A DNA stretch of 64,000 nucleotides from Christensenellaceae bacterium (GTDB lineage Bacteria > Bacillota > Clostridia > Christensenellales > Borkfalkiaceae), in assembly GCA_045598745.1 (NCBI GenBank), contig JAZLMT010000025.1, positions 2,062-66,061 on the forward strand, in the 5' to 3' direction. The translations under genes were made by a program, and so were the position numbers. The notes under the pieces were generated by a model. That model ran no database searches and had not been told where the DNA came from. It was given only the letters and a program-made list of their open reading frames with translations. Shown here in pieces: positions 18,955-44,423 of this stretch; position 1 is the stretch's first letter; every line of letters begins with the position of its first letter.

Positions 18955-20346
18955 ATGATTTATTTAAATGATAAAACGAATTTGCTTGAAGAAGATGATT
19001 ATCACTATACACTTCAAAACGTAGAAGAACCACAACTATATCGTGAAATATTTGATTATGAACACGTTCCGAAAATAGTATTCAATAATCGCCGTGTTCC
19101 TATGAATATGCCGGAAGAAATTTGGATAACGGATACAACTTTCCGTGACGGGCAACAATCAACATCGCCTTTTACCGTTGAACAAATTGTTGAACTCTTT
19201 AAGATGATGTCTAAACTCGGTGGGAAAAAGGGAATTGTCAGACAATCAGAATTTTTCCTTTATTCAGATAAAGATAGGCGTGCCGCACAAGAATGTATGA
19301 ATCTCGGCTTAAAGTTTCCGGAAGTTACAAGTTGGATTAGAGCAAATAAAAACGATTTTCAACTTGTTAAAGAAATGGGAATGCAAGAAACAGGCGTTTT
19401 GGTAAGTTGTTCCGATTATCATATCTTTAAGAAAATGAATTTAAACAGGGCTCAAGCACTTGAAAAATATTTGGGTATTGTTAAAGACGCTTTATCTGCA
19501 GGGATAAAGCCAAGATGCCACTTTGAAGATATAACAAGAGCGGATTTTTACGGTTTTGTAGTCCCGTTTGCAAGTGAACTTATGAAACTTTCAAAGGAAA
19601 GCGGAATTCCTATAAAAGTTAGGGCTTGTGATACTATGGGATTTGGCGTAAACTTTGTCGGTGCATCACTTCCGAGAAGTGTTCCGGGAATAATTTACGG
19701 ATTAAACCATTATGCAGGTGTTCCTAGCGAAATGCTTGAGTGGCACGGTCATAACGACTTTTATAAGGTTGTTTCAAATGCAACTTCTGCTTGGCTTTAC
19801 GGTTGTGCTTCAGTTAACTGTTCACTTTTGGGTATAGGCGAAAGAACCGGAAACTGTCCGCTTGAAGCAATGGCAATAGAATATGCTTCACTTAAAGGCA
19901 CTTCAGACGGTATGGATTATACGGTAATTACTGATATAGCAAACTATTTTGAAAGAGAAATAGGCTACGTTATTCCTTCAAGAACACCGTTTGTCGGTAG
20001 AAGTTTTAACTCAACGAGAGCAGGTATTCATGCAGACGGAATGCTTAAAGACGAAGAAATTTACAATATATTTGATACGGCAAAATTACTTAATAGGCCA
20101 ATGAACGTTTCAATAAATAATACAAGTGGTTTAGCAGGCATTGCTTACTGGATAAATCAATACTATGAACTTTCCGATGAGCATAAGATAGAAAAATCAC
20201 ATCCTATTGTTTCAAAAATTAAAGAACTTATTGATAAAGAATATGAAGACGGTAGATGTAGCGTTATGGGTGATGATGAACTTGACGCAATGTTAATGGC
20301 TTGTGATAAAGATTTTCATAAAAAATTGTTAATATTAGCGGAATAA
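18955..20346 (+). CDS. homocitrate/isopropylmalate synthase-family enzyme with an intact active site, possibly Re-citrate synthase-like
   Basis: DTTFRDGQQS, HGHNDF (HxH) and GIGERTGNCPLE are intact. No LeuA-type C-terminal regulatory domain. Long N-terminal lead-in before the barrel. Confidence 0.6.
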   Translation: MIYLNDKTNLLEEDDYHYTLQNVEEPQLYREIFDYEHVPKIVFNNRRVPMNMPEEIWITDTTFRDGQQSTSPFTVEQIVELFKMMSKLGGKKGIVRQSEFFLYSDKDRRAAQECMNLGLKFPEVTSWIRANKNDFQLVKEMGMQETGVLVSCSDYHIFKKMNLNRAQALEKYLGIVKDALSAGIKPRCHFEDITRADFYGFVVPFASELMKLSKESGIPIKVRACDTMGFGVNFVGASLPRSVPGIIYGLNHYAGVPSEMLEWHGHNDFYKVVSNATSAWLYGCASVNCSLLGIGERTGNCPLEAMAIEYASLKGTSDGMDYTVITDIANYFEREIGYVIPSRTPFVGRSFNSTRAGIHADGMLKDEEIYNIFDTAKLLNRPMNVSINNTSGLAGIAYWINQYYELSDEHKIEKSHPIVSKIKELIDKEYEDGRCSVMGDDELDAMLMACDKDFHKKLLILAE

Positions 20347-32218: not shown

Positions 32219-33019
32219 ATGGAAATTTTTGATTCACACGCACACATTTATCCGGAAAAAATAGCAGAAAAAGCGACTAAAGCTATAGGCGACTTTTATA
32301 ATTTAAAAATGGAAGAAGATAAAGGAACGCCGTCAAGGCTTATAGAAGTTGGTAAGTATGCAGGAATAAGTAAATACTTGGTGCATTCTTGTGCAACGAA
32401 AAGTAGCCAAGTTCATGCAATAAACGAATTTATTTTGCAAGAAATTACGGTTCATAAAGAATTTATCGGGTTTATGACGCTTCATCAAGACTTGACGATT
32501 GAAGAAATGAAAGAAGAAATACTGTTTTGTAAAGCAAACGGGTTCAAAGGGATAAAACTTCATCCTGACTTTCAAAAATTTGATATTGACTGTGAAGATG
32601 CAGAAAAAATTTATAAAGCCGTTGTTGAAACAAATTGTAATTTTCCGATACTTTTACACATGGGAGATAATAGGTTTGATTTCTCTAAACCGGAAAAACT
32701 TTGCGCTATGGCAAAAAAATATCCAAGCATTACGTTTATCGGGGCTCATTTCGGTGGATATAGATGCTGGGATAATCTTGAGCAGTATAAGGGAATAAAT
32801 AATATTTACTTTGATACAAGTTCGTCTTTGGATTTTATAGGAAGTAAAAGGGCGAAAGAATTAATTGAATTTTTTGGTGTAGATAAATTTTTCTTTGGAA
32901 CGGATTTTCCTATGTGGTCACCGAAAGATGAATTAAAAAGATTTTTTGATATCGGTTTAACAAACGAAGAAAACGAAAAGATACTATCAAAAAACCTTAA
33001 AAAATTACTGAATATTTAA
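32219..33019 (+). CDS. amidohydrolase-2 / TIM-barrel metal-dependent hydrolase family protein
   Basis: DSHAH N-terminal metal motif, KLHP, LLHMG, GAHFGG and GTDFPMW. Confidence 0.65.
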   Translation: MEIFDSHAHIYPEKIAEKATKAIGDFYNLKMEEDKGTPSRLIEVGKYAGISKYLVHSCATKSSQVHAINEFILQEITVHKEFIGFMTLHQDLTIEEMKEEILFCKANGFKGIKLHPDFQKFDIDCEDAEKIYKAVVETNCNFPILLHMGDNRFDFSKPEKLCAMAKKYPSITFIGAHFGGYRCWDNLEQYKGINNIYFDTSSSLDFIGSKRAKELIEFFGVDKFFFGTDFPMWSPKDELKRFFDIGLTNEENEKILSKNLKKLLNI

Positions 33020-33041: not shown

Positions 33042-33070
33042 TTGACAAAATTTTAGTCTTTTAGTATAAT
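33042..33070 (+). promoter_or_regulatory. consensus sigma-A promoter of the T-box operon
   Basis: TTGACA (33042-33047), 17-nt spacer, TATAAT (33065-33070). Confidence 0.7.
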
Positions 33071-33077
33071 ATACTAA

Positions 33078-33303
33078 AGACTGTGAAGGAAATAAGTTGT
33101 CAACCTTTTTTATTAAGAGAGTCGGTGGTTGGTGTGAACTGATTAAAAAATGATAACGCGCTCGTTCCGGAGTTGATTTGGTGAACTTTAGTAGCTGAAT
33201 TCGGGTAATTCCGTTAAAGATTTTGAGTGATTGCCTTTTGGCAATAATACGGGTGGTACCGCGGTTAATTCGTCCCTAAATAATTTTTTAGGGATTTTTT
33301 TGT
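33078..33303 (+). promoter_or_regulatory. T-box leader (tRNA-sensing transcription attenuator), probable Leu CUC specifier
   Basis: AGAGAG (33116-33121); distal-loop GGTGGTTGGTGTGAA; candidate specifier CTC followed by G (33161-33164); AGTAG; F-box CCGTTA (33211-33216); stem III ATTGCC-TTTT-GGCAAT (33230-33245); T-box AATACGGGTGGTACCGCGG (33246-33264); terminator TCCCTAAA-N6-TTTAGGGA plus T-run (33273-33303). Confidence 0.85.
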
Positions 33304-33320: not shown

Positions 33321-34712
33321 ATGAAAAACATCAAGATAATTGACGTATCTTTAAGGGAAATTCAATCTTCAAACGAATCGTTAAGTTTTAAGGAAAAGTT
33401 GGAAATAGCCAAAAAACTTGACGAATTAAACGTAGACGTTATTGAATTCGGTAATATTTGTGAAAAGGCTGATGAAGTTTTAATTAAGACTTTATCAACT
33501 TGTTTGACAAAATCAACGTTAGGATTAGTTGTAGACGGGAAGGTGAAAGACTTAAAGAAGTCCTATTCACTTGTTTCGCTTGCCAAAAAGAAAAAACTTA
33601 TAATAAAAATGCCGGTTTCTCCGATAAATATGGAATATTCTTTTCACTTAAAGCCGGCAGTTATATTAAAGAATTTTGAAGAACTTATAAAAAACGCTGT
33701 TTTAATTTGTGAAGACGTTGAAGTTCATTTTGAAGATTCTACCAGGGCAGAAAACGAATTTTTAATAAATGCAATAAAAACCGTTTTAAGTTTAGGGGTT
33801 AAATCAATAACGCTTTCCGATCAAACGGGGACAATGGAACCAAACGAGTTCAAAGAATTTATAGAGAATATTATTACTTTGGTTCCTGAAATAAAAAGCG
33901 TTGATTTGTTTGTTGAATGTTGTGATTTATTCAGAATGGCAACTTCGTCTATTATCAATGTTTTACCGAGTATTTCCGGTGTAAAGCTTTCAGCACTTAA
34001 TACATGTTGTTTGCCGGATTTTGAACATTTCTTTTCGGCACTTAACTATATCGGCGAAAAGAAAGGGTATTCTTCTAAAATAAATAAAACTTGCATTTCA
34101 AGGGTTGTTGGGCAAATATTGAATATTTCTTCTTCAAAAGCACAATCCGTTAACGATCAAGAAGAAACAGTAGAAAATATTTCAAAGAAGATAACGCTTA
34201 ATGCACTCACGAAACTTCTAAAAAAACGGGGGTATGATTTAACGGGAGAAGATATTTCTAAAATTTATGAAGAAATTTTAAGAATAGGCGAAAAGAAAGA
34301 TTTAACTACAAAAGAGCTTGATTCTATAGTTGCCGTAACGGCACTTCAAGTTCCGGCTACTTACGAGCTAAAAAATTATGCCGTTCACTCAAGCAACGTT
34401 TTATCTTCAACGGCAAACGTAACTTTAATAAAAAATAAAAATAGCGAAATAAACGGAATTGCGTTTGGAAACGGTTCGGTTGATTCTGCGTTTTTGGCAA
34501 TAGAAAATGCTCTTGGCCGTCATTTTGATCTTGATGAATTTTCACTTAACAGTGTTACCGAAGGTAAAGAAGCAATGGGTGAAACTATAATCAAGTTAAG
34601 AAATAACGGAAAGATTTATTCAGGTAGGGGTGTTTCTACCGATATTGTCGGTGCAAGTATAAAGGCTTATATAAACGCTTTAAACAAAATTGTATACGAG
34701 GAAAAAGAATAA
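33321..34712 (+). CDS. divergent 2-isopropylmalate synthase (LeuA) paralogue: catalytic motifs degenerate, C-terminal LeuA regulatory domain conserved
   Basis: IDVSLREIQSS replaces DTTLRDGEQS. VECCDLF replaces HxHND. GIGERAGN is absent. The C-terminus GNGSVDSAF...GKEAMGETIIKL...GKIYSGRGVSTDIVGASIKAYINALNKI matches the LeuA allosteric domain closely. AGGAG RBS plus ATG at 33321. Confidence 0.7.
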   Translation: MKNIKIIDVSLREIQSSNESLSFKEKLEIAKKLDELNVDVIEFGNICEKADEVLIKTLSTCLTKSTLGLVVDGKVKDLKKSYSLVSLAKKKKLIIKMPVSPINMEYSFHLKPAVILKNFEELIKNAVLICEDVEVHFEDSTRAENEFLINAIKTVLSLGVKSITLSDQTGTMEPNEFKEFIENIITLVPEIKSVDLFVECCDLFRMATSSIINVLPSISGVKLSALNTCCLPDFEHFFSALNYIGEKKGYSSKINKTCISRVVGQILNISSSKAQSVNDQEETVENISKKITLNALTKLLKKRGYDLTGEDISKIYEEILRIGEKKDLTTKELDSIVAVTALQVPATYELKNYAVHSSNVLSSTANVTLIKNKNSEINGIAFGNGSVDSAFLAIENALGRHFDLDEFSLNSVTEGKEAMGETIIKLRNNGKIYSGRGVSTDIVGASIKAYINALNKIVYEEKE

Positions 34713-37219
34713 TGCAATTATCATTTTCAACAAATGGTTGGAATTTAGATTTTAACAACTTAATAAAATTGTGCGTTGAAAATAAGATTTGCGGTCTTGA
34801 AATTCACGATATAAATGCCGATTGTTTTAATAACGGTAATCCTTTTATCAGGGAAAATATTAACAAAACAAAAAAGGCACTTTTTGAAAATAATATTTCA
34901 ATTTCTTGCTTTGATTTGAAAACGAATTTTGCTACTGTTTGTGAAAACGATTGTATCGTTAAAGAAATTGAAAATCTTATTTCGGTTGCAAACGAAATAA
35001 ATTGTAAATATATTCGTTTGCATGCTTTTGAATATGAAAAATATAACGAAAAGGTTTTTTATAAAAAAGCAAATGAATATTTAACCGGCTTAATAGAATA
35101 CGCAAAGAAGAAAAACGTTACCATTTTGTTTGAAACTATGGGTATTTTTTCTGACACGAAGGTTTTAGGGGATTTTCTAGGCAGTTTTGCAGACGATAAC
35201 CTTTCTTCTGTTTGGGACGTGCATAATACTTTCAGATTTGCAAACGAAAATCCAAACGTAACTGTTCAAAATTTAGGTAAAAATATAAAGCATATTCATA
35301 TAAAGGACAGTTTGATTGTAAACGGCAAAGTAAATTATTGTTTTTTGGGTGAAGGAGATTTGCCTGTAAAAGAAATAATAAAATCACTTATGTCTATCAA
35401 CTATGAAGGATATATTTCTTTGGAAGTTATTCCAGATTGGCTAGGTTCTTTAGGTGATGAAAATATTGTTTTACCACAATTTTCAAGTTATATGTCTTCG
35501 TTTGATATGGCACCGGCTTGGCAAAAGAAATTGTTTTTAAATAAATCGGGAACAGGTAAATTTATTTGGGCAAAAGATATTTTAATAGAAAAAACTTGCT
35601 CTCAAGTTTTAGATAGAGTTGCTTTAGATTTTCCTGATCAAGTTGCGTTTAAATATACGACTTTGGATTACACGAGAACTTATAAAGAATTTAGAGATGA
35701 AGTTGACGTTGTAGCAAGGGCATTGATGAGCGTTGGCGTTAGATCTGGTGATCACGTTGCCGTTTGGGCAACTAACGTTCCGGAATGGTTTTTGGTTTTC
35801 TGGGCAACGACAAAAATCGGGGCAGTTTTGGTTTCTGTTAATACTGCTTATAAATCACATGAAATAGAGTATCTTTTAAGACAATCTGATACGCATACTT
35901 TATTTATTATTGACGGATATAGGGATAGCAATTATGCTGAAATAATCAATGAATTATGTCCTGAACTTAAGAAAAATAAAAAAGGAAGTCCACTTCACGC
36001 AAAGCGTCTTCCTTTCCTTCGCAACGTTATAACAATCGGTTTTTCTCAAAGTGGTTCGCTTAATTTCAGTGAGTTTATGAATATGGCGAAACTTGTTTCG
36101 TATGAAGAAATGAAAGCCGTTGCTAACAGTGTAAAGATAAATGACGTTTGTAATATGCAATATACTTCGGGAACGACAGGTTTTCCAAAAGGGGTAATGC
36201 TCACACATTATAACATTATGAACAACGGTAAGTGCATAGGTGACAGAATGGATTTGTCAACGGCGGATAGAATGATGATTCAAGTTCCTATGTTCCATTG
36301 TTTCGGTATGGTTTTATCTATGATTGCGGCAATCACGCACGGCGTAACGATTTGTCCGCTTCCGTATTTTTCACCGAAGCCTGCACTTCAATGTATTAAT
36401 CAAGAGAGAATAACTTGTTTTCATGGCGTTCCTACAATGTTTATTGCGCTTTTATCTCACGCTGATTTTGCAAAAACGGATTTTTCATTTATGAGAACGG
36501 GAATAATGGCGGGAAGCCCTTGTCCTGTTTCCGTTATGCAAGACGTTTTGAATAAAATGAATATGAAAGAAATAACTATCGTTTACGGTCAAACGGAAGC
36601 TTCGCCTGGTTGCACAATGAGTTCAACTACCGATAGTGTGGACGTTAGAGTTAATACTGTTGGCGGTCCGCTTCCAAACGTAGAGTGCAAGATAGTTAAT
36701 CCGGAAACTAATGAAGAATTGCCGATAAACACCGTTGGTGAATTTGTTGCACGTGGCTATAACGTTATGAAAGGTTATTACAAAATGCCTATTGAAACTG
36801 CTAAAACCATTGATGAAGACGGTTGGCTTCATACGGGCGACCTTGCGTTAAAGACGGAAGAAGGCAATTTTAGAATTACGGGTAGATTGAAAGATATGAT
36901 TATCCGTGGCGGTGAAAACTTATATCCTAAAGAGATAGAAGATTTCTTATATACGCACCCGAAAATATCAGACGTTCAAGTTGTTGGTGTTCCTGATGAA
37001 AAATATGGTGAAGAAGCGTATGCTTTCATTATATTAAAGGAAAATCAAACGTTAACGGAAGAAGAATTAAGAAAATATTGTAACGAAAGAATAGCAAAAC
37101 ATAAAGTTCCGAGATATTTTGATTTTGTGGATAGTTTTCCTATGAACGTTGCAGGAAAAATTCTCAAATATAAAATGAGAGAAGATGCAGAAAATAAAAT
37201 AAAAAGCAATAGGAAATAA
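34712..37219 (+). CDS. fusion protein: xylose-isomerase-like TIM barrel (sugar-phosphate isomerase/epimerase family) plus AMP-forming acyl-CoA ligase
   Basis: N-terminal ~270 aa carry LFET, WDVHN, HIHIKD and SLEV, as in AP-endonuclease-2/xylose-isomerase-like barrels. The C-terminus has YTSGTTGFPKGVMLTH, YGQTE, WLHTGD, GRLKDMIIRGGENLYP and the terminal GKILK lysine motif. Confidence 0.75.
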   Translation: MQLSFSTNGWNLDFNNLIKLCVENKICGLEIHDINADCFNNGNPFIRENINKTKKALFENNISISCFDLKTNFATVCENDCIVKEIENLISVANEINCKYIRLHAFEYEKYNEKVFYKKANEYLTGLIEYAKKKNVTILFETMGIFSDTKVLGDFLGSFADDNLSSVWDVHNTFRFANENPNVTVQNLGKNIKHIHIKDSLIVNGKVNYCFLGEGDLPVKEIIKSLMSINYEGYISLEVIPDWLGSLGDENIVLPQFSSYMSSFDMAPAWQKKLFLNKSGTGKFIWAKDILIEKTCSQVLDRVALDFPDQVAFKYTTLDYTRTYKEFRDEVDVVARALMSVGVRSGDHVAVWATNVPEWFLVFWATTKIGAVLVSVNTAYKSHEIEYLLRQSDTHTLFIIDGYRDSNYAEIINELCPELKKNKKGSPLHAKRLPFLRNVITIGFSQSGSLNFSEFMNMAKLVSYEEMKAVANSVKINDVCNMQYTSGTTGFPKGVMLTHYNIMNNGKCIGDRMDLSTADRMMIQVPMFHCFGMVLSMIAAITHGVTICPLPYFSPKPALQCINQERITCFHGVPTMFIALLSHADFAKTDFSFMRTGIMAGSPCPVSVMQDVLNKMNMKEITIVYGQTEASPGCTMSSTTDSVDVRVNTVGGPLPNVECKIVNPETNEELPINTVGEFVARGYNVMKGYYKMPIETAKTIDEDGWLHTGDLALKTEEGNFRITGRLKDMIIRGGENLYPKEIEDFLYTHPKISDVQVVGVPDEKYGEEAYAFIILKENQTLTEEELRKYCNERIAKHKVPRYFDFVDSFPMNVAGKILKYKMREDAENKIKSNRK

Positions 37220-37223
37220 AGAT

Positions 37224-37799
37224 ATGGATACTGCTTTATTGGTTTGTTTAATAACATCATCGTTGTCTATTTTAACTTTTGTCGTTACTTTCATTTTTAA
37301 TTTATCATCGAATAAAAGTAATAACACTAAAGATATTATTGTAAAACAGAGAGTGAAAACTTTAGATAATTACAGATGTTCTTGTAAGGATTTTTTAGCT
37401 TTGATTAAGCCTGAAGTTATAGATGATTTCAAGAAAAACAAAGAAAAAAAAATGATATATACTTTGGAATTATCAAAAGCAAAATCTTCACTTGATTTGA
37501 TTTTAAAACCTTTTTTCGAGACTGAAGAAAAAATAAATAATTTAACTGATAAAATCGTAAAATTATGTTTTTTGTATTATAGTAATCCAAACGAAAAAAG
37601 CAAATTGGAAATTGAAGAATTGTCAAATGAGTTATTAGTTTTGTTTTCTTTGTATGATTGGGCATACTGGAGATTTATTCAAGAACAAAAAGACGGAATT
37701 TTAAAAGATGATAACGGTTCTTTCGATAAGAATTACAATGACGTTTTAGAGAGTGTTGTTAGTTTAGAAAAAAAATATATAAATTTAATAAAAAAATAG
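37224..37799 (+). CDS. hypothetical protein with N-terminal TM anchor and helical K/E-rich body (no recognisable family)
   Basis: MDTALLVCLITSSLSILTFVVTFIF anchor. Visibly more AT-rich than its neighbours. 4 nt after the upstream stop. Confidence 0.4.
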   Translation: MDTALLVCLITSSLSILTFVVTFIFNLSSNKSNNTKDIIVKQRVKTLDNYRCSCKDFLALIKPEVIDDFKKNKEKKMIYTLELSKAKSSLDLILKPFFETEEKINNLTDKIVKLCFLYYSNPNEKSKLEIEELSNELLVLFSLYDWAYWRFIQEQKDGILKDDNGSFDKNYNDVLESVVSLEKKYINLIKK

Positions 37800-37809
37800 A
37801 GGTATTATT

Positions 37810-38880
37810 ATGCAAGAGATTAAAATTACAAAGGCAAAAGTTTTGAAAGAAAAACCAGATTATTCAAAACTTGGTTTCGGCAAATATTTTACCGATCATA
37901 TGTTTATGATGGATTATACGCCAGAAAAGGGTTGGTATGATGCAAGGATTATTCCATACGGCAATCTTTCAATCAATCCGGCAACAACTGTTTTACACTA
38001 TGGCGTAGAAATTTTTGAAGGATTAAAAGCTTATAGAACAGAAGACGGTTATCAATTATTCCGTCCTTATGAAAACTTTAAGAGAATGAACGATTCTGCC
38101 GAGAGATTATCACTTCCACAAGTTGACGTTGATTTTTGTGTAGAAACATTAAAAACTTTGATAAATATTGATTACGATTGGATTCCGAAAGATTTAGGAA
38201 CTTCGCTTTATATTCGTCCGTTTATGTTCGGTAGTGACGAAGCTTTGGGTGTTCACGCAGTTAAAAATGCAACTTTCGTTATAATTTTATCACCTGTTGG
38301 CAGTTATTATGCCGGTGGTTTAGCACCTGTTAAAATCGGTATTGAAAGTCAAGACGTTAGGGCTGTTCGTGGCGGAACGGGTTATGCAAAATGCGGTGGA
38401 AATTACGCAGCATCTCTCCGTGCAGATAAAAAGGCATCGGCAAAAGGTTTTTCTCAAGTTTTATGGCTTGACGGCGTAGAAAGAAAGTATATTGAAGAAG
38501 TTGGCGCTATGAACGTTATGTTCAAAATAAAGGGTGAAATTATTACGCCGAAACTTATCGGCTCGGTTCTTCCTGGTATTACAAGAAAATCAATTCTTGA
38601 GATTTTGAAAGATTGGGGATATAAGGTTACCGAAAGATTGTTCTCTGTTGACGAATTAATAAAGGCTGCTAAAAAAGGCACGCTTGAAGAAGCTTGGGGA
38701 ACGGGAACGGCTGCAGTTGTTTCACCGATAGGCCTTCTTTCTTATCTTGATAAAGACTATACGATTTCTAATAATCAAATAGGTGAATTAACTCAAAAAC
38801 TTTATGATGAACTTACCGGAATTCAATGGGGTTTAAGAGAAGATACTCATAATTGGATCGTTAAAGTTAAGGTTAAATAA
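37810..38880 (+). CDS. ilvE: branched-chain amino acid aminotransferase (fold type IV)
   Basis: FGKYFTDHMF, VLHYGVEIFEGLKAYR, and GGTGYAKCGGNYAAS (PLP lysine region). Confidence 0.9.
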   Translation: MQEIKITKAKVLKEKPDYSKLGFGKYFTDHMFMMDYTPEKGWYDARIIPYGNLSINPATTVLHYGVEIFEGLKAYRTEDGYQLFRPYENFKRMNDSAERLSLPQVDVDFCVETLKTLINIDYDWIPKDLGTSLYIRPFMFGSDEALGVHAVKNATFVIILSPVGSYYAGGLAPVKIGIESQDVRAVRGGTGYAKCGGNYAASLRADKKASAKGFSQVLWLDGVERKYIEEVGAMNVMFKIKGEIITPKLIGSVLPGITRKSILEILKDWGYKVTERLFSVDELIKAAKKGTLEEAWGTGTAAVVSPIGLLSYLDKDYTISNNQIGELTQKLYDELTGIQWGLREDTHNWIVKVKVK

Positions 38881-39542
38881 TGGAGCATAAAAGGGTTACT
38901 ATATTTTCGGGGCATTACGGAAGCGGAAAGACAAACGTTTCGGTAAATTATGCAAAGGAACTGAAAAGATTAGGTAAACAAGTCAGTATTTTTGATTTAG
39001 ATATTGTTAATCCGTATTTTAGAACGGTTGACGCCAAAGCCGATTTGGAAAGTAACGGAATAGAACTTATTGTTTCGCCTTATGCGGAAACGAACGTAGA
39101 TATTCCGGCGATGAACGCAATGTCGTATAAAATCAATGATGATAAAAGTAAATTTGCCGTTATTGATTTGGGTGGTGATGACAGAGGCGCTTTGGCACTC
39201 GGTAGATTTTCTCAAAAAATACTTGAAGAAAACAACTATGAATTTGTTTACGTTGTAAATACTTTTAGGCCGGAAACAAGAAATATTGAAGGTTTAGAAG
39301 AAATTAAAGAAGAAATTGAAAGTGTTGCTAAAATGAAATTTACCGCAATCGTCAACAACACGAATCTTTCAACCGAAACGACTTTAGAAGATATAGAGAA
39401 CAGTTTTAAGTTAGTAACGGAATTTAGTAAAAAATATAATCTTCCTATACTTTTTACATCAGTTAGGCGAGATTTATATAATAAAGAACAAAAAAAAGAA
39501 AAATATCTTCCCCTTGATTTAATAAAATACGGGGAATGGTAG
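38880..39542 (+). CDS. SIMIBI-class (MinD/ParA/CobQ-like) P-loop ATPase, function unknown
   Basis: Walker A GHYGSGKT and Walker B AVIDLGGDD. The start codon shares one base with the ilvE stop. Confidence 0.55.
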   Translation: MEHKRVTIFSGHYGSGKTNVSVNYAKELKRLGKQVSIFDLDIVNPYFRTVDAKADLESNGIELIVSPYAETNVDIPAMNAMSYKINDDKSKFAVIDLGGDDRGALALGRFSQKILEENNYEFVYVVNTFRPETRNIEGLEEIKEEIESVAKMKFTAIVNNTNLSTETTLEDIENSFKLVTEFSKKYNLPILFTSVRRDLYNKEQKKEKYLPLDLIKYGEW

Positions 39543-39552
39543 AGGAGAAATA

Positions 39553-39759
39553 ATGGCAAAAGTAACTTTTGACGTAGATCGTTGCAAGGGTTGTGGCTTA
39601 TGCGTAAGCGTTTGCCCAAAAAAAATTATAAGACTAGCAAAAGAAAAAATTAACAAAAAAGGGTATCATCCTGCAGAAATGACAGATCAAGCAAGTTGTA
39701 TTGCTTGTGCATTTTGCGCAACTATGTGCCCGGATACAGTTATCACTGTAGAGAAATAG
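39553..39759 (+). CDS. 2-oxoacid:ferredoxin oxidoreductase delta subunit (2x[4Fe-4S] ferredoxin)
   Basis: CKGCGLCVSVCP and CIACAFCATMCP motifs. 68 aa. Confidence 0.8.
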   Translation: MAKVTFDVDRCKGCGLCVSVCPKKIIRLAKEKINKKGYHPAEMTDQASCIACAFCATMCPDTVITVEK

Positions 39760-39768
39760 GAGGAGATT

Positions 39769-40839
39769 ATGGCTGAAAAAGTTTTAATGAAAGGTAACGA
39801 AGCTTTGGCTGAAGCTGCTATAATGGCAGGTTGCAGACATTATTTCGGTTATCCTATCACACCACAAACGGAAGTTGCCGCATATATGAGTAAGCGTATG
39901 CCTAAAATCGGCGGTGTATTCCTTCAAGCTGAATCTGAAGTTGCCGCTATCAATATGGTTATCGGTGTATCGGCTTGCGGAAAGAGAGTAATGACAAGTA
40001 GTAGTAGCCCTGGAATTTCACTAAAGAGCGAAGGTATTTCATACCTTGCAGGTTGTGAACTTCCTGCGCTAATCGTAAACGTTCAAAGGGGTGGCCCTGG
40101 TCTTGGTGGTATTCAACCTTCACAATCAGACTACTTTCAAGCAACGAAGGGTGGTGGACACGGCGACTATAAGTTGTTGGTTTTAGCACCTGCATCAGTT
40201 CAAGAAATGGTTGATTTAACGGTTAAAGGTTTTGACCTTGCCGATAAATACAGAATGCAAACTATGTTGTTGGCTGACGGAACAATGGGACAAATGATGG
40301 AACCTGTTTCGTTAGAAGTCCCAACGCAAAAGGTTTACGATAAGCCTTGGGCAACAACGGGAACTGCTAATCACGAAGGTAGAAACATTATAAATTCTTT
40401 AAGTTTAACACCTGCACAACTTGAACAATGGAATATTTCAAGATTTGAAAGATATAAAATTGTTGAAGAAAACGAAGTTATGTATGAAGAATTTATGATG
40501 GATGATGCAGATATTTGTATCGTTGCATTCGGTATTGCTTCAAGAGTTTCTAAAAATGCAATTTTAGAAGCTAGAAAACAAGGAATTAAAGTCGGATTGC
40601 TTCGTCCTATTACGTTATGGCCTTTCCCAAAGAAAGCATTAAAAGAAGCAAGTAAAAAGGTTAAATCTTTCCTTTCAGTTGAACTCAATATGGGGCAAAT
40701 GATTGATGACGTTAAACTTGCAATTGATTGCAGTAAACCTGTTTACTTGTGTAATAGAACCGGTGGCGTTATTATGTCAACGGATGAAGTATTAAATAAA
40801 ATTATTGAAATAACAAAAGGGGAGGCAAAGGCATGGTAG
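39769..40839 (+). CDS. 2-oxoacid:ferredoxin oxidoreductase alpha subunit
   Basis: MKGNEALAEAAIMAGCRHYFGYPITPQTE and the downstream layout typical of Kor/Vor alpha subunits. Confidence 0.85.
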   Translation: MAEKVLMKGNEALAEAAIMAGCRHYFGYPITPQTEVAAYMSKRMPKIGGVFLQAESEVAAINMVIGVSACGKRVMTSSSSPGISLKSEGISYLAGCELPALIVNVQRGGPGLGGIQPSQSDYFQATKGGGHGDYKLLVLAPASVQEMVDLTVKGFDLADKYRMQTMLLADGTMGQMMEPVSLEVPTQKVYDKPWATTGTANHEGRNIINSLSLTPAQLEQWNISRFERYKIVEENEVMYEEFMMDDADICIVAFGIASRVSKNAILEARKQGIKVGLLRPITLWPFPKKALKEASKKVKSFLSVELNMGQMIDDVKLAIDCSKPVYLCNRTGGVIMSTDEVLNKIIEITKGEAKAW

Positions 40840-41579
40840 TTTTTGAAAAGACTAAGGGCTTAACGGATAATGAACTTCATTATTGCCCGGGTTGTACACA
40901 TGGTATAATTCATAGATTAGTTGCAGAATGCCTTGAAGAATTGGGCGTTTTAGACAGAACGGTTGGCGTTGCTTCGGTTGGTTGTTCGGTTTTCTCGTAT
41001 AACTATTTCAATTGTGATATGATTCAAGCAGCGCACGGTAGAGCACCTGCAGTTGCAACGGGCGCTAAAAGAGCAAACCCGAATAATATCGTATTTACGT
41101 ATCAAGGTGACGGTGACCTTGCTGCTATCGGAACGGCTGAAACAGTTCACTCTGCCGGTCGTGGTGAAAATATCACGGTAATATTTGTAAACAATGCTAT
41201 TTACGGTATGACCGGTGGTCAAATGGCACCTACAACACTTCCAAATCAAGTAACACAAACTTCACCTTACGGTAGAGACGTTACCGTTGTTGGTTATCCG
41301 ATTAAAGTATGTGAAATGCTTTCTCAAGTAGACGGCGCAGGATATCTTGAAAGGGTTGCAGTTAATAACGTTAAGAACATTAAAAATGCAAAAAAGGCAA
41401 TTATGCATGCGTTTAAGAACCAGATTGAAGGCAAAGGATTTTCTCTTATAGAAGTTCTTTCAACTTGCCCGACAAACTGGGGCTTAGCACCACAAGATGC
41501 AATTAAGTGGCTTGATGAAAATATGGAAACATATTATCCTTTAGGTGTTTATAAAGATAAATACAAGGAGGAAAAATAA
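40833..41579 (+). CDS. 2-oxoacid:ferredoxin oxidoreductase beta subunit (TPP-binding)
   Basis: YCPGCTHG, GDGDLAAIG and NNAIYGMTGGQ TPP motifs. Confidence 0.85.
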   Translation: MVVFEKTKGLTDNELHYCPGCTHGIIHRLVAECLEELGVLDRTVGVASVGCSVFSYNYFNCDMIQAAHGRAPAVATGAKRANPNNIVFTYQGDGDLAAIGTAETVHSAGRGENITVIFVNNAIYGMTGGQMAPTTLPNQVTQTSPYGRDVTVVGYPIKVCEMLSQVDGAGYLERVAVNNVKNIKNAKKAIMHAFKNQIEGKGFSLIEVLSTCPTNWGLAPQDAIKWLDENMETYYPLGVYKDKYKEEK

Positions 41580-41580
41580 T

Positions 41581-42120
41581 ATGACAGAAGCAAAAATGTT
41601 AATAGCTGGCTTTGGTGGACAAGGTATTTTGTTCACCGGAAAGGCTATTGCTTATACAGGCTTAAAAATCGGCAAAGAAGTAAGTTGGTTACCTTCTTAC
41701 GGACCGGAAATGAGAGGCGGAACGGCAAATTGTTCAGTAACGATTTCCGATACGCCGATAGGTTCTCCAATCGTAGAAAAACCGAATATACTTATTGCTA
41801 TGAACCTACCATCTTTAGAAAAGTATTATAACGATACCGAAAAGGGTGGATATATAATATATGACAGTTCACTCATTAGCAAGCAGGATACCAGAGATGA
41901 TGTTACCACCATTGGTATTCCTGCGACAAAACTTGCAAGTGATAACGAACTTGGTGGACTGGCAAATATGATTATCTTGGGTAAAGTATTACAAGCAACA
42001 AAAATACTTACACTAGATCAAGTTAAGAGCAGTCTATCGCAAATGATTCCTGCAAAACGTGCAGAAATGTTAGAAAAAAATATTAAGGCGATAGAATTGG
42101 GCTTTGAGTTCAAGGAGTAA
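41581..42120 (+). CDS. 2-oxoacid:ferredoxin oxidoreductase gamma subunit
   Basis: [10 protein letters not shown] and [10 protein letters not shown] motifs. ATG 41581 follows a GGAGG-type RBS. Confidence 0.85.
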
Positions 42121-42124
42121 AATA

Positions 42125-42676
42125 ATGAAAGAACAGTTAATAGAAATGGGGCTTCGTCTTGCTGACTTAAGAGAAACAAAAGATGTTTCGCAAGAAGAAA
42201 TTGCTGAAAGACTTAATATTCCACTTGAAGAATATCAAGCATACGAAAACGGTGAAAGAGATTTTTCTTTCAGTTTTATGTATAATGTAGCAACAATTTT
42301 GGAAGTTGACGTTTTTAATTTACTTTCAGGAACTTCTCCTAAACTAAACGACTGTGCAGTTGTTAGGCGTGGGCACGAATTTTATATAAAAAAAGAAGGT
42401 GCCTACGACTATAAACATCTTGCATACACGTTCAAAAATAAAAAAGCAGAACCTTTCTTTGTAAGTTGTGAACCGGGTGAAGAGGATAAAGAACTTCATA
42501 GCCACGAAGGTCAAGAATTTAACTTTATTCTTTCGGGTAAAATGTTATTTAAGATCGGTTCAATGTCTTATGAACTTAATAAGGGTGATAGCGTATATTT
42601 TAATTCAAAAATTCCACACGGAATTAAAGTTTTAGGCGATACACCGGTTAAGTTTCTTGCTTTTGTAATGAAATAA
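42125..42676 (+). CDS. XRE-family HTH transcriptional regulator with C-terminal cupin domain
   Basis: N-terminal HTH_3 pattern LRLADLRETKDVSQEEIAERLNIPLEEYQAYENGE. C-terminal cupin HSHEGQEFNFILSG...GDSVYF...PH. Confidence 0.8.
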   Translation: MKEQLIEMGLRLADLRETKDVSQEEIAERLNIPLEEYQAYENGERDFSFSFMYNVATILEVDVFNLLSGTSPKLNDCAVVRRGHEFYIKKEGAYDYKHLAYTFKNKKAEPFFVSCEPGEEDKELHSHEGQEFNFILSGKMLFKIGSMSYELNKGDSVYFNSKIPHGIKVLGDTPVKFLAFVMK

Positions 42677-42701: not shown

Positions 42702-44423
42702 ATGGTAATTTACGAAAAGTTTATCGGTAGAACAAGAGATTCTTTTACCGATTTAAACGACTTAAGACAAAATTTTAAAATTGAATATCCAAATAATTTC
42801 AACTTTGCGTATGACGTAATTGATGAATTAGGCAAAACAAAACCAAAAAAGCTTGCTATGATTTGGCTTTCTAAAACCATGGAAGAAAAGAGATTTACTT
42901 TTTCCGATATGATGATTTGGTCAAATAAGGCTGCAAATTATTTTAAAAGTGAAGGTATTAAAAAAGGCGACAGAGTTTTACTTGTCCTTAAGAGAAGTTA
43001 TTTATTCTGGTTTGCTATGCTTGGGCTTCATAAGATAGGTGCGATTCCTGTTCAAGCAACTAATATGCTTGTAGGGCATGACTTTACCTACCGTTGCAAT
43101 AAAGGTGCAATTAAAGCTGTTATAATGACTGGTGATGATGACGTTACGGAACATTTTGATGACGTTTGGGCAAAATGTCCAACCGTTACAAAGAAATACG
43201 TAACTAAACATAAAAAGCCTGTCGGTGGCTGTTGGATTGATTTTGAAGAAGGTTTAGAAAAGGCTAGTGAAGATTGGGTGCGCCCTACAGGTGAAGACGC
43301 AACGACTGTTAACGACGTAATGCTTATGGCGTTTACTTCGGGAACGACAGGATATCCAAAGATGATTAAACATGATTTTAGATATCCTTTAGGTCATATT
43401 ATGACTGGCGTTTTTTGGCATAGAGTTGTCAACGGAGGCTTACATTTCACCATTTCTGATACGGGCTGGCTTAAATCTTTATGGGGCAAATTCTATGGCC
43501 AATGGTTTGGTGAATCTGCCGTTTTGGTTTACGACTTTGATAAGTTTGATGCTAAAGAAATACTTGAAATTCTAGAAAAATATAAGGTAACTACTTTCTG
43601 TGTTCCACCAACAATGTATAGATTTATTCTTCAACAAGACGTTGCAAAATATAATCTTTCAAGTCTAACAAACTGCTGTTCTGCAGGTGAAGCCTTAAAT
43701 GCAGATATTTATAACAAGTGGAAACAATTTACGGGTTTAGATATTTATGAAGGTTTTGGGCAAACGGAAACAACTCTTTGTTTAGGCACGCTAAAAGGTT
43801 TTGCAACGCCGATTTCAGGTTTTATAGGAACGCCTATTCCGGGTTATGAAATTTCTATCAAAAATGCTGAAGGGGTAGATTGTTTACCTGGTGAAGAAGG
43901 CGAAATTTGTATTAAAGGCACTTTGGCAAATAAGCCTTGCGGTGTTTCATGCGGATATCACGATGATGAAGAAAGTATGGCTAAATCATGGAAAGACGGA
44001 TATTTTCACACAGGTGATACGGCTTATTTTGATGAACACGGGCTTATTAAATATATAGGAAGAAATGATGACGTTATAAAGTCGTCAGGATACCGTATAG
44101 GGCCTTTTGAAGTTGAAAGCGTTTTAATGGAACATCCTGCCGTTTTAGAAGTTGCGGTAACCGGCTATCCTGATGCAAAACGTGGTTTTTGTGTTAAAGC
44201 AACAATCGTATTAAAAAAAGGATATATTCCGAGTGACGAGCTTAAATTAGAGCTTCAAACGTTTGTAAAACATAATACAGCACCTTATAAATATCCAAGA
44301 ATTATTGAGTTTGTTGATTCTCTTCCAAAAACCATTAGCGGTAAAATAAAGAGAACGGAAATTCGTGATAGAGATATTGAGAATTATAAAAAACTTTTAG
44401 AAATAAAAACTATAACTGAATAA
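42702..44423 (+). CDS. AMP-forming acyl-CoA synthetase, medium-chain (ACSM/MACS-like) type
   Basis: FTSGTTGYPKMIKH, YEGFGQTE, YFHTGD, GRNDDVIKSSGYRIGP and SGKIKR. Confidence 0.8.
   Translation: MVIYEKFIGRTRDSFTDLNDLRQNFKIEYPNNFNFAYDVIDELGKTKPKKLAMIWLSKTMEEKRFTFSDMMIWSNKAANYFKSEGIKKGDRVLLVLKRSYLFWFAMLGLHKIGAIPVQATNMLVGHDFTYRCNKGAIKAVIMTGDDDVTEHFDDVWAKCPTVTKKYVTKHKKPVGGCWIDFEEGLEKASEDWVRPTGEDATTVNDVMLMAFTSGTTGYPKMIKHDFRYPLGHIMTGVFWHRVVNGGLHFTISDTGWLKSLWGKFYGQWFGESAVLVYDFDKFDAKEILEILEKYKVTTFCVPPTMYRFILQQDVAKYNLSSLTNCCSAGEALNADIYNKWKQFTGLDIYEGFGQTETTLCLGTLKGFATPISGFIGTPIPGYEISIKNAEGVDCLPGEEGEICIKGTLANKPCGVSCGYHDDEESMAKSWKDGYFHTGDTAYFDEHGLIKYIGRNDDVIKSSGYRIGPFEVESVLMEHPAVLEVAVTGYPDAKRGFCVKATIVLKKGYIPSDELKLELQTFVKHNTAPYKYPRIIEFVDSLPKTISGKIKRTEIRDRDIENYKKLLEIKTITE

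Follow-up and report, generated by a model that had tools for sequence, protein, structure and literature searches.

A window of 64,000 nucleotides from a Christensenellaceae bacterium (GenBank assembly GCA_045598745.1, contig JAZLMT010000025.1, positions 2,062 to 66,061 of the forward strand; the window here means this whole stretch) carries a gene that joins a xylose-isomerase-like TIM barrel to an AMP-forming acyl-coenzyme A (CoA) ligase, and we find that the product, probably a two-enzyme protein, is a regular component of many gut and rumen Clostridia. Barrel and ligase are inherited together, fused or apart, and the ligase family is tied to leucine by the T-box leader that precedes it. 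In what follows, ACS1 denotes the ligase half of the fusion and its orthologues, and ACS2 the second ligase of the same operon and its relatives. We propose with moderate confidence that the operon encodes a Leu-T-box-controlled isovalerate-CoA ligase that feeds a 2-oxoacid:ferredoxin oxidoreductase (OFOR) and a branched-chain amino acid aminotransferase (IlvE), together with an obligate barrel enzyme. The fusion gene is laid out as follows.

34712-37219, forward strand: fusion gene, a single open reading frame (ORF) of 835 amino acids (aa)
34712..35506, forward strand: barrel part, a xylose-isomerase-like TIM barrel, fusion aa 1-265 (delimited by Pfam, AlphaFold and alignments)
35507..35578, forward strand: linker, fusion aa 266-289, of low model confidence
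35579..37219, forward strand: ligase part, a predicted AMP-forming acyl-CoA ligase (PF00501 plus PF13193), fusion aa 290-835 (546 aa), with all core motifs

The original prediction, of a barrel followed by a complete ligase in one 835-aa frame, holds: three Pfam domains lie in that frame, namely PF01261 at aa 31-241 (E 1.5e-24; 87.5 bits against a gathering threshold of 31.1), PF00501 at aa 301-690 (E 5.4e-93; 312.3 bits against a cut-off of 29.9) and PF13193 (AMP-binding_C) at aa 741-816 (E 2.4e-19; 70.5 bits against a cut-off of 24.5). Each motif that it had quoted was likewise recovered in place, in the barrel as LFET (139-142), WDVHN (168-172), HIHIKD (194-199) and SLEV (236-239), and in the ligase as A3 YTSGTTGFPKG (484-494), A5 YGQTE (625-629), A7 WLHTGD (705-710), the A8 hinge GRLKDMIIRGGENLYP (724-739) and A10 GKILK (815-819), which holds the catalytic lysine. 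The five ligase motifs are invariant across 52 relatives, and both halves of the fusion look catalytically intact from their residues. The linker holds a conserved NKxxTGKFIW motif, and the start codon of the gene overlaps the stop codon of an upstream LeuA paralogue (TAATG). The AlphaFold model of the full-length protein (predicted template modelling score, pTM, 0.60) has a low-confidence linker at about aa 266-290 and predicts no fixed interface or tunnel between barrel and ligase.

An assembly or frameshift artefact at the junction, a concern raised together with the original prediction, was rejected because the same architecture is conserved in hundreds of genomes. The N-terminal 290 aa matched 92 protein clusters, about 820-843 aa long bar two shorter entries, nearly all with the same three domains and, among the full-length matches, with N-domain identities of 37-59%, and a barrel profile (A1) built from 28 barrels found matches with the motifs in at least 588 species-level genomes. 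These carriers are Clostridia metagenome-assembled genomes (MAGs) from animal and human guts, Ruminococcus MAGs among them, and the cultured Anaerobacterium chartisolvens DSM 27016. The window itself comes from a 1.11-Mb MAG that is 77% complete, and its fusion protein shares a 90%-identity cluster with a protein of Candidatus Caballimonas caccae, of the order Christensenellales. Barrel and ligase lie in one ORF across the 80 loci that we fetched, bar a few contig-end or frameshift-like cases, and the apparent stand-alone close matches among short proteins proved to be contig-end partials or frameshift-broken copies. The fusion had been called unusual; rare it is not, given its presence in about half of the sampled Clostridia genomes (fused in 65 of 150 sampled evenly). 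The suspicion that it matches no characterised enzyme stands: we found no characterised member, and the source names of the 92 clusters, where given, are 'AMP-binding protein' or 'fatty-acyl-CoA synthase' only, the NCBI name being 'AMP-binding protein'. The family is thus common and, with no NCBIfam model reaching its cut-off, uncharacterised. Our literature searches found no description of a barrel-ligase fusion or of a Leu-T-box ligase.

To follow the two halves, 150 evenly drawn Clostridia genomes were searched with the barrel profile (threshold at least 150 bits) and the ligase half (ACS1 orthologues at E 1e-120 or better), and with the amidohydrolase and LeuA paralogue described below; as these genomes are related, the co-occurrence counts are descriptive and carry no statistical test. 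The barrel was present in 85 genomes and ACS1 in 80, with both in 79; six genomes had the barrel only (two of them being fusions cut by contig ends and two having in-frame stops) and one had ACS1 only. In 16 genomes the halves are separate genes for a barrel of about 270 aa and a ligase of about 555 aa (52-58% identical to the ACS1 of the window), and a stand-alone barrel is present alongside 16 of 17 unfused ligases. The split genes are neighbours, the ligase preceding the barrel, in G017, a genome from the taxonomic order of the window organism, and in G030, and elsewhere occupy different loci. The barrel tree agrees with the ligase tree: stand-alone barrels group in a single clade next to the fusions that lack the LeuA paralogue, 15 of the 16 unfused ligases form one clade whose internal branching matches the barrel tree, and G146 represents one further, recent fission. 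Given this co-occurrence and these matching trees, the barrel is an independently folding, obligate evolutionary partner of ACS1, whether fused or apart, and not an accident of gene calling. The channelling between the two steps that had been read into the fusion is, as an obligate feature, not supported, since the linker is modelled at low confidence and the halves exist as separate, usually unlinked genes. In a sister clade, stand-alone barrels sit in a conserved row (L105:5979-12194, L099:5967-12276, L094:6611-10281) with a TRZ/ATZ-type deaminase, a class IV aminotransferase-like protein, a FadD-like ligase and 6-phosphogluconate dehydrogenase; the stand-alone barrel neighbourhoods (deaminase, class IV aminotransferase, FadD-like ligase, gnd, purL) yielded no coherent pathway.

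The strongest functional clue to ACS1 is its leucine T-box. The elements that precede the operon are the following.

33042..33070, forward strand: sigma-70-type operon promoter, TTGACA-17-TATAAT (12/12)
33074..33295, forward strand: T-box leader (Rfam RF00230) with a CUC (Leu) specifier, a terminator hairpin and a T-run

The leader matches RF00230 at 33074-33280 with 136.9 bits against a gathering score of 93, the cmscan alignment places CUC followed by a purine at the specifier, and the terminator hairpin spans 33272-33295; by these features it is a predicted leucine T-box, and the match, with the promoter upstream, bears out the earlier placing of the fusion within a T-box operon. A Stem-I covariance model built from six leaders and run on 100 loci found 65 leaders, 64 of which are followed 80-135 nucleotides (nt) downstream by a T-box core. 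CUC leaders stand upstream of the LeuA paralogue and fusion at 37 loci (plus one CUA), upstream of fusions without the paralogue at 4 loci (L064, L072, L080, L087) and upstream of unfused ACS1 at 11 loci, so that the Leu (CUC) T-box is a property of the ACS1 family present in all three gene arrangements. The reading is independent of the Stem-I model, because Rfam's own alignments also give CUC for the window leader and five loci. On search, a T-box was absent at the split pair of L098, the divergent fusions of L102 and L103, and at L086, L066 and L082. In L086 (Anaerobacterium chartisolvens) the fusion gene stands alone behind a 950-bp region in which no T-box was detected, and it has a ZMP/ZTP riboswitch about 4 kb upstream (L086:5877-5988, reverse strand).

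The barrel is probably an active metal-dependent enzyme, as its invariant metal site suggests. Its AlphaFold model (predicted local distance difference test, pLDDT, 90.7) adopts a (beta/alpha)8 fold, with Foldseek matches at probability 1.00, template modelling (TM) scores of 0.68-0.79 and identities of at most 19% to 3tva, UlaE, AsbF, IolI, the DPEase/psicose/tagatose epimerases and Art22. The metal-site residues that had been thought present are indeed there: E141, D169, H196 and E238, at the ends of strands 5-8, occupy in the alignment the positions of the four D-tagatose 3-epimerase metal ligands and are invariant in 90 of 90 full-length relatives and 12 of 12 stand-alone forms, and E30, R102, E179, K198 and D199 are also kept in fused and stand-alone barrels. 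Profile-to-PDB searches returned Art22 (best, 3.6e-16; our search found no literature on it), MJ1311, AsbF and IolI. No NCBIfam model comes near its cut-off, the scores being 16-44 bits against cut-offs of 200-353; the best is FrlC (44 bits against 305), and the ketose 3-epimerase equivalogs (FrlC, IolO, UlaE/SgbU, psicose 3-epimerase) give 44.3, 34.6, 29.2, 25.5 and 24.4 bits against 200-317. In the profile alignment R102 and K198 match R102 and K200 of AsbF, and Met143 takes the position of AsbF His144, which we take to be the general (catalytic) base; the AsbF-type 3-dehydroshikimate dehydratase signature is accordingly incomplete, with the metal site and the R102/K200 equivalents present and the His144 equivalent replaced. 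The barrel fits no named family and probably represents a new subfamily.

ACS1 is, as far as its motifs and profile matches go, an ordinary AMP-forming acyl-CoA ligase of the ANL superfamily. Its best NCBIfam model is PRK12583 (NF009233), which covers aa 290-832 of the fusion (model positions 14-556 of 558) at 705.4 bits; the cut-off of 832 bits is reached neither by the fusion nor by the unfused orthologue of L098 (757.7 bits). The MbcS equivalog NF047394 (cut-off 850 bits) is absent among the fusion's best 25 models.

The genes that follow the fusion supply the context for this ligase.

37224..37799, forward strand: membrane-anchored ORF of 191 aa with no family match
37810..38880, forward strand: branched-chain amino acid aminotransferase, IlvE type II (NCBIfam NF009897, 473.5 bits against a cut-off of 307)
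38880..39542, forward strand: CbiA/ParA-like P-loop NTPase
39553..42120, forward strand: OFOR, four subunits
39553-39759, forward strand: OFOR small 2x[4Fe-4S]-type subunit
39769-40839, forward strand: OFOR alpha subunit, VorB type (NF005507 VorB, 546.5 bits against a cut-off of 399)
40833-41579, forward strand: OFOR beta subunit
41578-42120, forward strand: OFOR gamma subunit
42125..42676, forward strand: XRE-helix-turn-helix (HTH) plus cupin protein
42702..44423, forward strand: second acyl-CoA ligase, ACS2, of MbcS/Macs type (PDB 3etc, 644.5 bits; NCBIfam MbcS, 407.7 bits)

The cassette order (LeuA paralogue, fusion, IlvE, P-loop protein, ferredoxin, OFOR alpha/beta/gamma, XRE-cupin, ACS2) is kept at N-domain identities of 40-47%, and about 35 of the 80 loci have all or nearly all of it; where only the pair of paralogue and fusion follows the T-box, a VorB-type OFOR (58-78% identical) is encoded elsewhere in the genome (5 of 5). 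The 191-aa ORF is without a homologue in the 80 related loci, in which ilvE comes immediately after the fusion, and looks like a lineage-specific insert. Nearly all full cassettes keep the P-loop NTPase gene at its place between ilvE and the genes for the OFOR; its product may help the OFOR to mature or deliver Fe-S clusters to it.

In the window, ACS1 and ACS2 stand under one and the same Leu T-box. In several relatives the XRE-HTH/cupin segment is fused to the N-terminus of an MbcS/Macs-type ligase (about 760-800 aa), each such gene having its own T-box (L033:2468-7752, reverse strand; L051:16228-18832; L058:15573-18197; L074:1343-3930; L089:7147-9781; L022:1216-3819), and because of these fusions the XRE-cupin 'regulator' looks like a ligase domain rather than an ordinary transcription factor. 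As we read them, six T-boxes of the fused XRE-cupin-ACS2 genes have the specifier GUA (Val) and one has AUC (Ile); L051 gives GUA directly, and the other five GUA readings need a one-base re-registration of the model alignment, which restores the codon, the purine and a 4-nt stem. The Rfam gathering threshold misses these ACS2-linked T-boxes, which we accept because a T-box core follows 84-133 nt downstream. A possible aromatic equivalent of the branched-chain salvage operon lies at L006:2221-8247 (reverse strand), where the T-box specifier apparently reads UAC (Tyr) and the genes behind it encode, in this order, a further AMP-binding ligase, an OFOR of indolepyruvate type, a PaaK-like ligase and an ACT protein.

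Assuming that flux through the operon runs towards amino acids, its working can be envisioned as follows. Uncharged tRNA-Leu would open the T-box, ACS1 would convert isovalerate to isovaleryl-CoA, the VorB-type OFOR would reductively carboxylate isovaleryl-CoA to 4-methyl-2-oxopentanoate and IlvE would aminate the latter to leucine, whereas ACS2 would serve the alpha-branched acids isobutyrate and 2-methylbutyrate (its most likely substrates) and hence valine and isoleucine. The barrel would act as an independently folding metal-dependent enzyme, and the LeuA paralogue would sense leucine through its kept regulatory domain, its metal site having been lost. We assign isovaleryl-CoA to leucine because a Leu T-box, a branched-chain aminotransferase and a VorB-type OFOR share the operon. 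Purified MbcS activates 2-methylbutyrate and isobutyrate and uses isovalerate poorly (PMC10026030), which gives a reason for a separate leucine-linked ligase. The simplest reading is a division of labour in which ACS1 would serve isovalerate and leucine, and ACS2-type ligases alpha-branched acids, valine and isoleucine.

Several observations weigh against this proposal. Isovalerate is the most likely physiological substrate of ACS1 on the basis of regulation and context only, the nearest solved relatives of ACS1 are feruloyl- and fatty-acyl-CoA synthetases at just 253 bits, and ACS1 falls below the cut-off of its own best NCBIfam model (705 against 832). The picture of one ligase for one amino acid is not perfectly clean, as three ACS2-type leaders are less clear, with an apparent CUC/CUG (L079, L068, L043). 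No T-boxes were found upstream of the stand-alone barrels. That no LeuB above the cut-off was found in the window genome (77% complete) or its closest relative favours the proposal, but a true LeuB is present in four of five other carriers checked; the operon would therefore be a salvage option and not simply a replacement for LeuABCD. Plain activation of isovalerate needs no isomerase, epimerase or dehydratase, and the obligate, intact barrel, often found with a PF04909 hydrolase/decarboxylase, hints at a more complex substrate or pathway. Isovaleryl-CoA could equally prime iso-branched fatty acids.

Two genes upstream of the fusion bear on these points.

32219..33019, forward strand: PF04909 (ACMSD/LigW-type) amidohydrolase, just upstream of the operon promoter
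33321..34712, forward strand: LeuA paralogue (HMGL-like plus LeuA_dimer)

The amidohydrolase underlies the alternative that survives best, which we nevertheless regard as rather unlikely: that the barrel, often with the amidohydrolase, first makes the acid from an oxygenated or conjugated precursor, much as AsbF supplies AsbC in petrobactin synthesis, so that the operon would define a new multi-step salvage of the leucine skeleton whose entry is not free isovalerate. Such a conversion would fit the complete metal site of the barrel and its AsbF-like R102 and K198, as well as the co-inheritance of barrel and ligase even when unlinked. An amidohydrolase orthologue occurs in 65 of the 80 ACS1 genomes against 10 of the 70 others, adjoins the fusion in at least 13 of the sampled genomes, and follows the ligase and barrel in G030 (C55:64913-65692) and the barrel in G132 (C94:238-1005); its PDB profile search places it near the uncharacterised BB4693 and, distantly, in the LigW/ACMSD decarboxylase/hydratase branch of PF04909. 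Given this recurrent trio of barrel, ligase and amidohydrolase, we keep open a pathway more complex than plain isovalerate activation. Against it, the amidohydrolase is missing from 15 of the 80 ACS1 genomes and isovalerate is abundant in gut and rumen. Hydrolysis and isomerisation by themselves would hardly turn hydroxy or keto precursors into a saturated isovaleryl skeleton, and the loci show no consistent link to a redox enzyme; moreover, the barrel has Met in place of AsbF His144, and its stand-alone forms lack T-box control. In its fullest form, which we put forward with low confidence, barrel, PF04909 amidohydrolase and ligase would constitute a new three-enzyme route from an oxygenated or conjugated gut metabolite to a leucine-skeleton acyl-CoA, with a catalytically dead LeuA as leucine-sensing allosteric subunit in some species. 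If true, this would be both an undescribed leucine salvage pathway and an undescribed feedback control of an ANL enzyme.

The LeuA paralogue is probably a leucine-sensing accessory in part of the family, judging from the domains that it has kept and lost. Its best score against the 2-isopropylmalate synthase model is 245.9 bits (cut-off 532), its metal site is degenerate in 72 orthologues (HxH to a VxCSN-like motif, RD to RE), and its LeuA_dimer leucine-regulatory domain is almost unchanged among them. We consider it improbable, more so than a precursor conversion, that the barrel is a non-catalytic module that binds a ligand or protein (for example, as a docking site for the LeuA paralogue or as an allosteric sensor) and regulates the ligase. 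The paralogue, present in 32 of the 150 genomes, lies directly upstream of a fused gene in 32 of 32 and never of an unfused one, its stop codon overlaps the fusion start, and the barrel has diverged much more rapidly (35-59% identity, against 62-75% for the ligase across Clostridia), all of which would suit a regulatory module. However, the paralogue was not found in 33 of the 65 fused genomes or in any of the split genomes checked, stand-alone barrels often lie apart from the ligase gene, and invariance of the four metal ligands and five polar active-site residues would be unusual for a pseudoenzyme. The narrower idea that the barrel serves solely as a docking site for the paralogue is weakened by the latter's occurrence in only 32 of the 65 fused genomes and none of the split genomes checked. 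The window holds a second LeuA/homocitrate-synthase-like gene (18955-20346) that keeps its catalytic motifs and is without LeuA_dimer; because the window genome has no LeuB above the cut-off and a single aconitase-family gene, this gene may serve something other than leucine synthesis.

A further alternative, which seems very unlikely, is that isovaleryl-CoA would go chiefly into priming iso-odd branched-chain fatty acids when leucine, from which this primer normally derives, is scarce, and not into leucine synthesis. Against it, the ligase is co-transcribed with a branched-chain aminotransferase and the OFOR in about 35 of 80 loci, linked fab genes are absent and T-box control is typical of amino-acid supply genes. 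In its favour, a Leu T-box would fit this need too, many carriers have an intact LeuB, and in Staphylococcus aureus MbcS, acting on other primers, provides a precedent in which scavenged branched acids can feed FabH (PMC10026030).

Returning to the proposed isovalerate-CoA ligase, the closest systems by function are MbcS of Staphylococcus aureus and Macs of Methanosarcina acetivorans (PDB 3etc), AMP-forming ligases that scavenge short branched-chain acids by turning them into CoA esters. ACS2 is of this type; ACS1, in contrast, falls into a different ANL subfamily, with PRK12583 as its best model, is joined to an N-terminal barrel and stands under a Leu T-box. MbcS, moreover, uses isovalerate poorly and feeds lipid rather than amino-acid synthesis (PMC10026030). 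The leaders found in relatives, Leu on ACS1 and Val or Ile on MbcS-type ligases, suggest that the ligases for branched acids share out the work; such a split would aid metabolic models of gut and rumen communities that cross-feed branched short-chain acids.

By family, the nearest relatives of ACS1 lie in PRK12583, the ACSF2/YngI-type 'fatty acid CoA ligase family' (NF009233), whose model is the best over the whole ligase half; this family is without the barrel, ACS1 scores below its curated cut-off, and we know of no member described with a Leu T-box or a LeuA paralogue. The barrel shares its fold and its E-D-H-E ligands with the ketose 3-epimerases and their relatives (D-tagatose/D-psicose 3-epimerase, UlaE, FrlC, IolI, AsbF and Art22), from which it is set apart by identities of at most 19% and by NCBIfam scores far below the cut-offs, and none of which is, to our knowledge, fused to or co-inherited with an acyl-CoA ligase. 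It also has the HxHxK(D) strand motif and the beta-4 Arg in common with AsbF, a TIM-barrel dehydratase whose acid product is activated by the adenylating enzyme AsbC in petrobactin biosynthesis. AsbF and AsbC are therefore the nearest functional precedent for pairing a xylose-isomerase-like barrel with an adenylate-forming enzyme; unlike the fusion, they are separate proteins of a siderophore pathway that act on an aromatic substrate, load a carrier protein instead of CoA and have no link to leucine. The obligate barrel and the recurrent amidohydrolase indicate that part of the chemistry is still missing, and in the degenerate LeuA paralogue a biosynthetic enzyme may have been put to new use as a sensor of its effector.

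The closest physiological parallel is the synthesis of leucine from isovalerate, which has been known in rumen bacteria for about sixty years; Allison and co-workers reportedly described in the 1960s the reductive carboxylation of isovalerate to leucine in rumen anaerobes, the genes not being identified, and our literature searches found no assigned gene for the acid-activating step. The operon holds the activities of this route (that is, acid activation, OFOR and transaminase) and its carriers are gut and rumen Clostridia, although neither the barrel domain nor the LeuA-like accessory protein would be expected from the classical route. In this respect the ACS1 family, present in roughly half of the sampled Clostridia genomes and tied to leucine by an RNA sensor rather than by homology alone, offers a concrete candidate for the step with which the rumen route from isovalerate to leucine begins.

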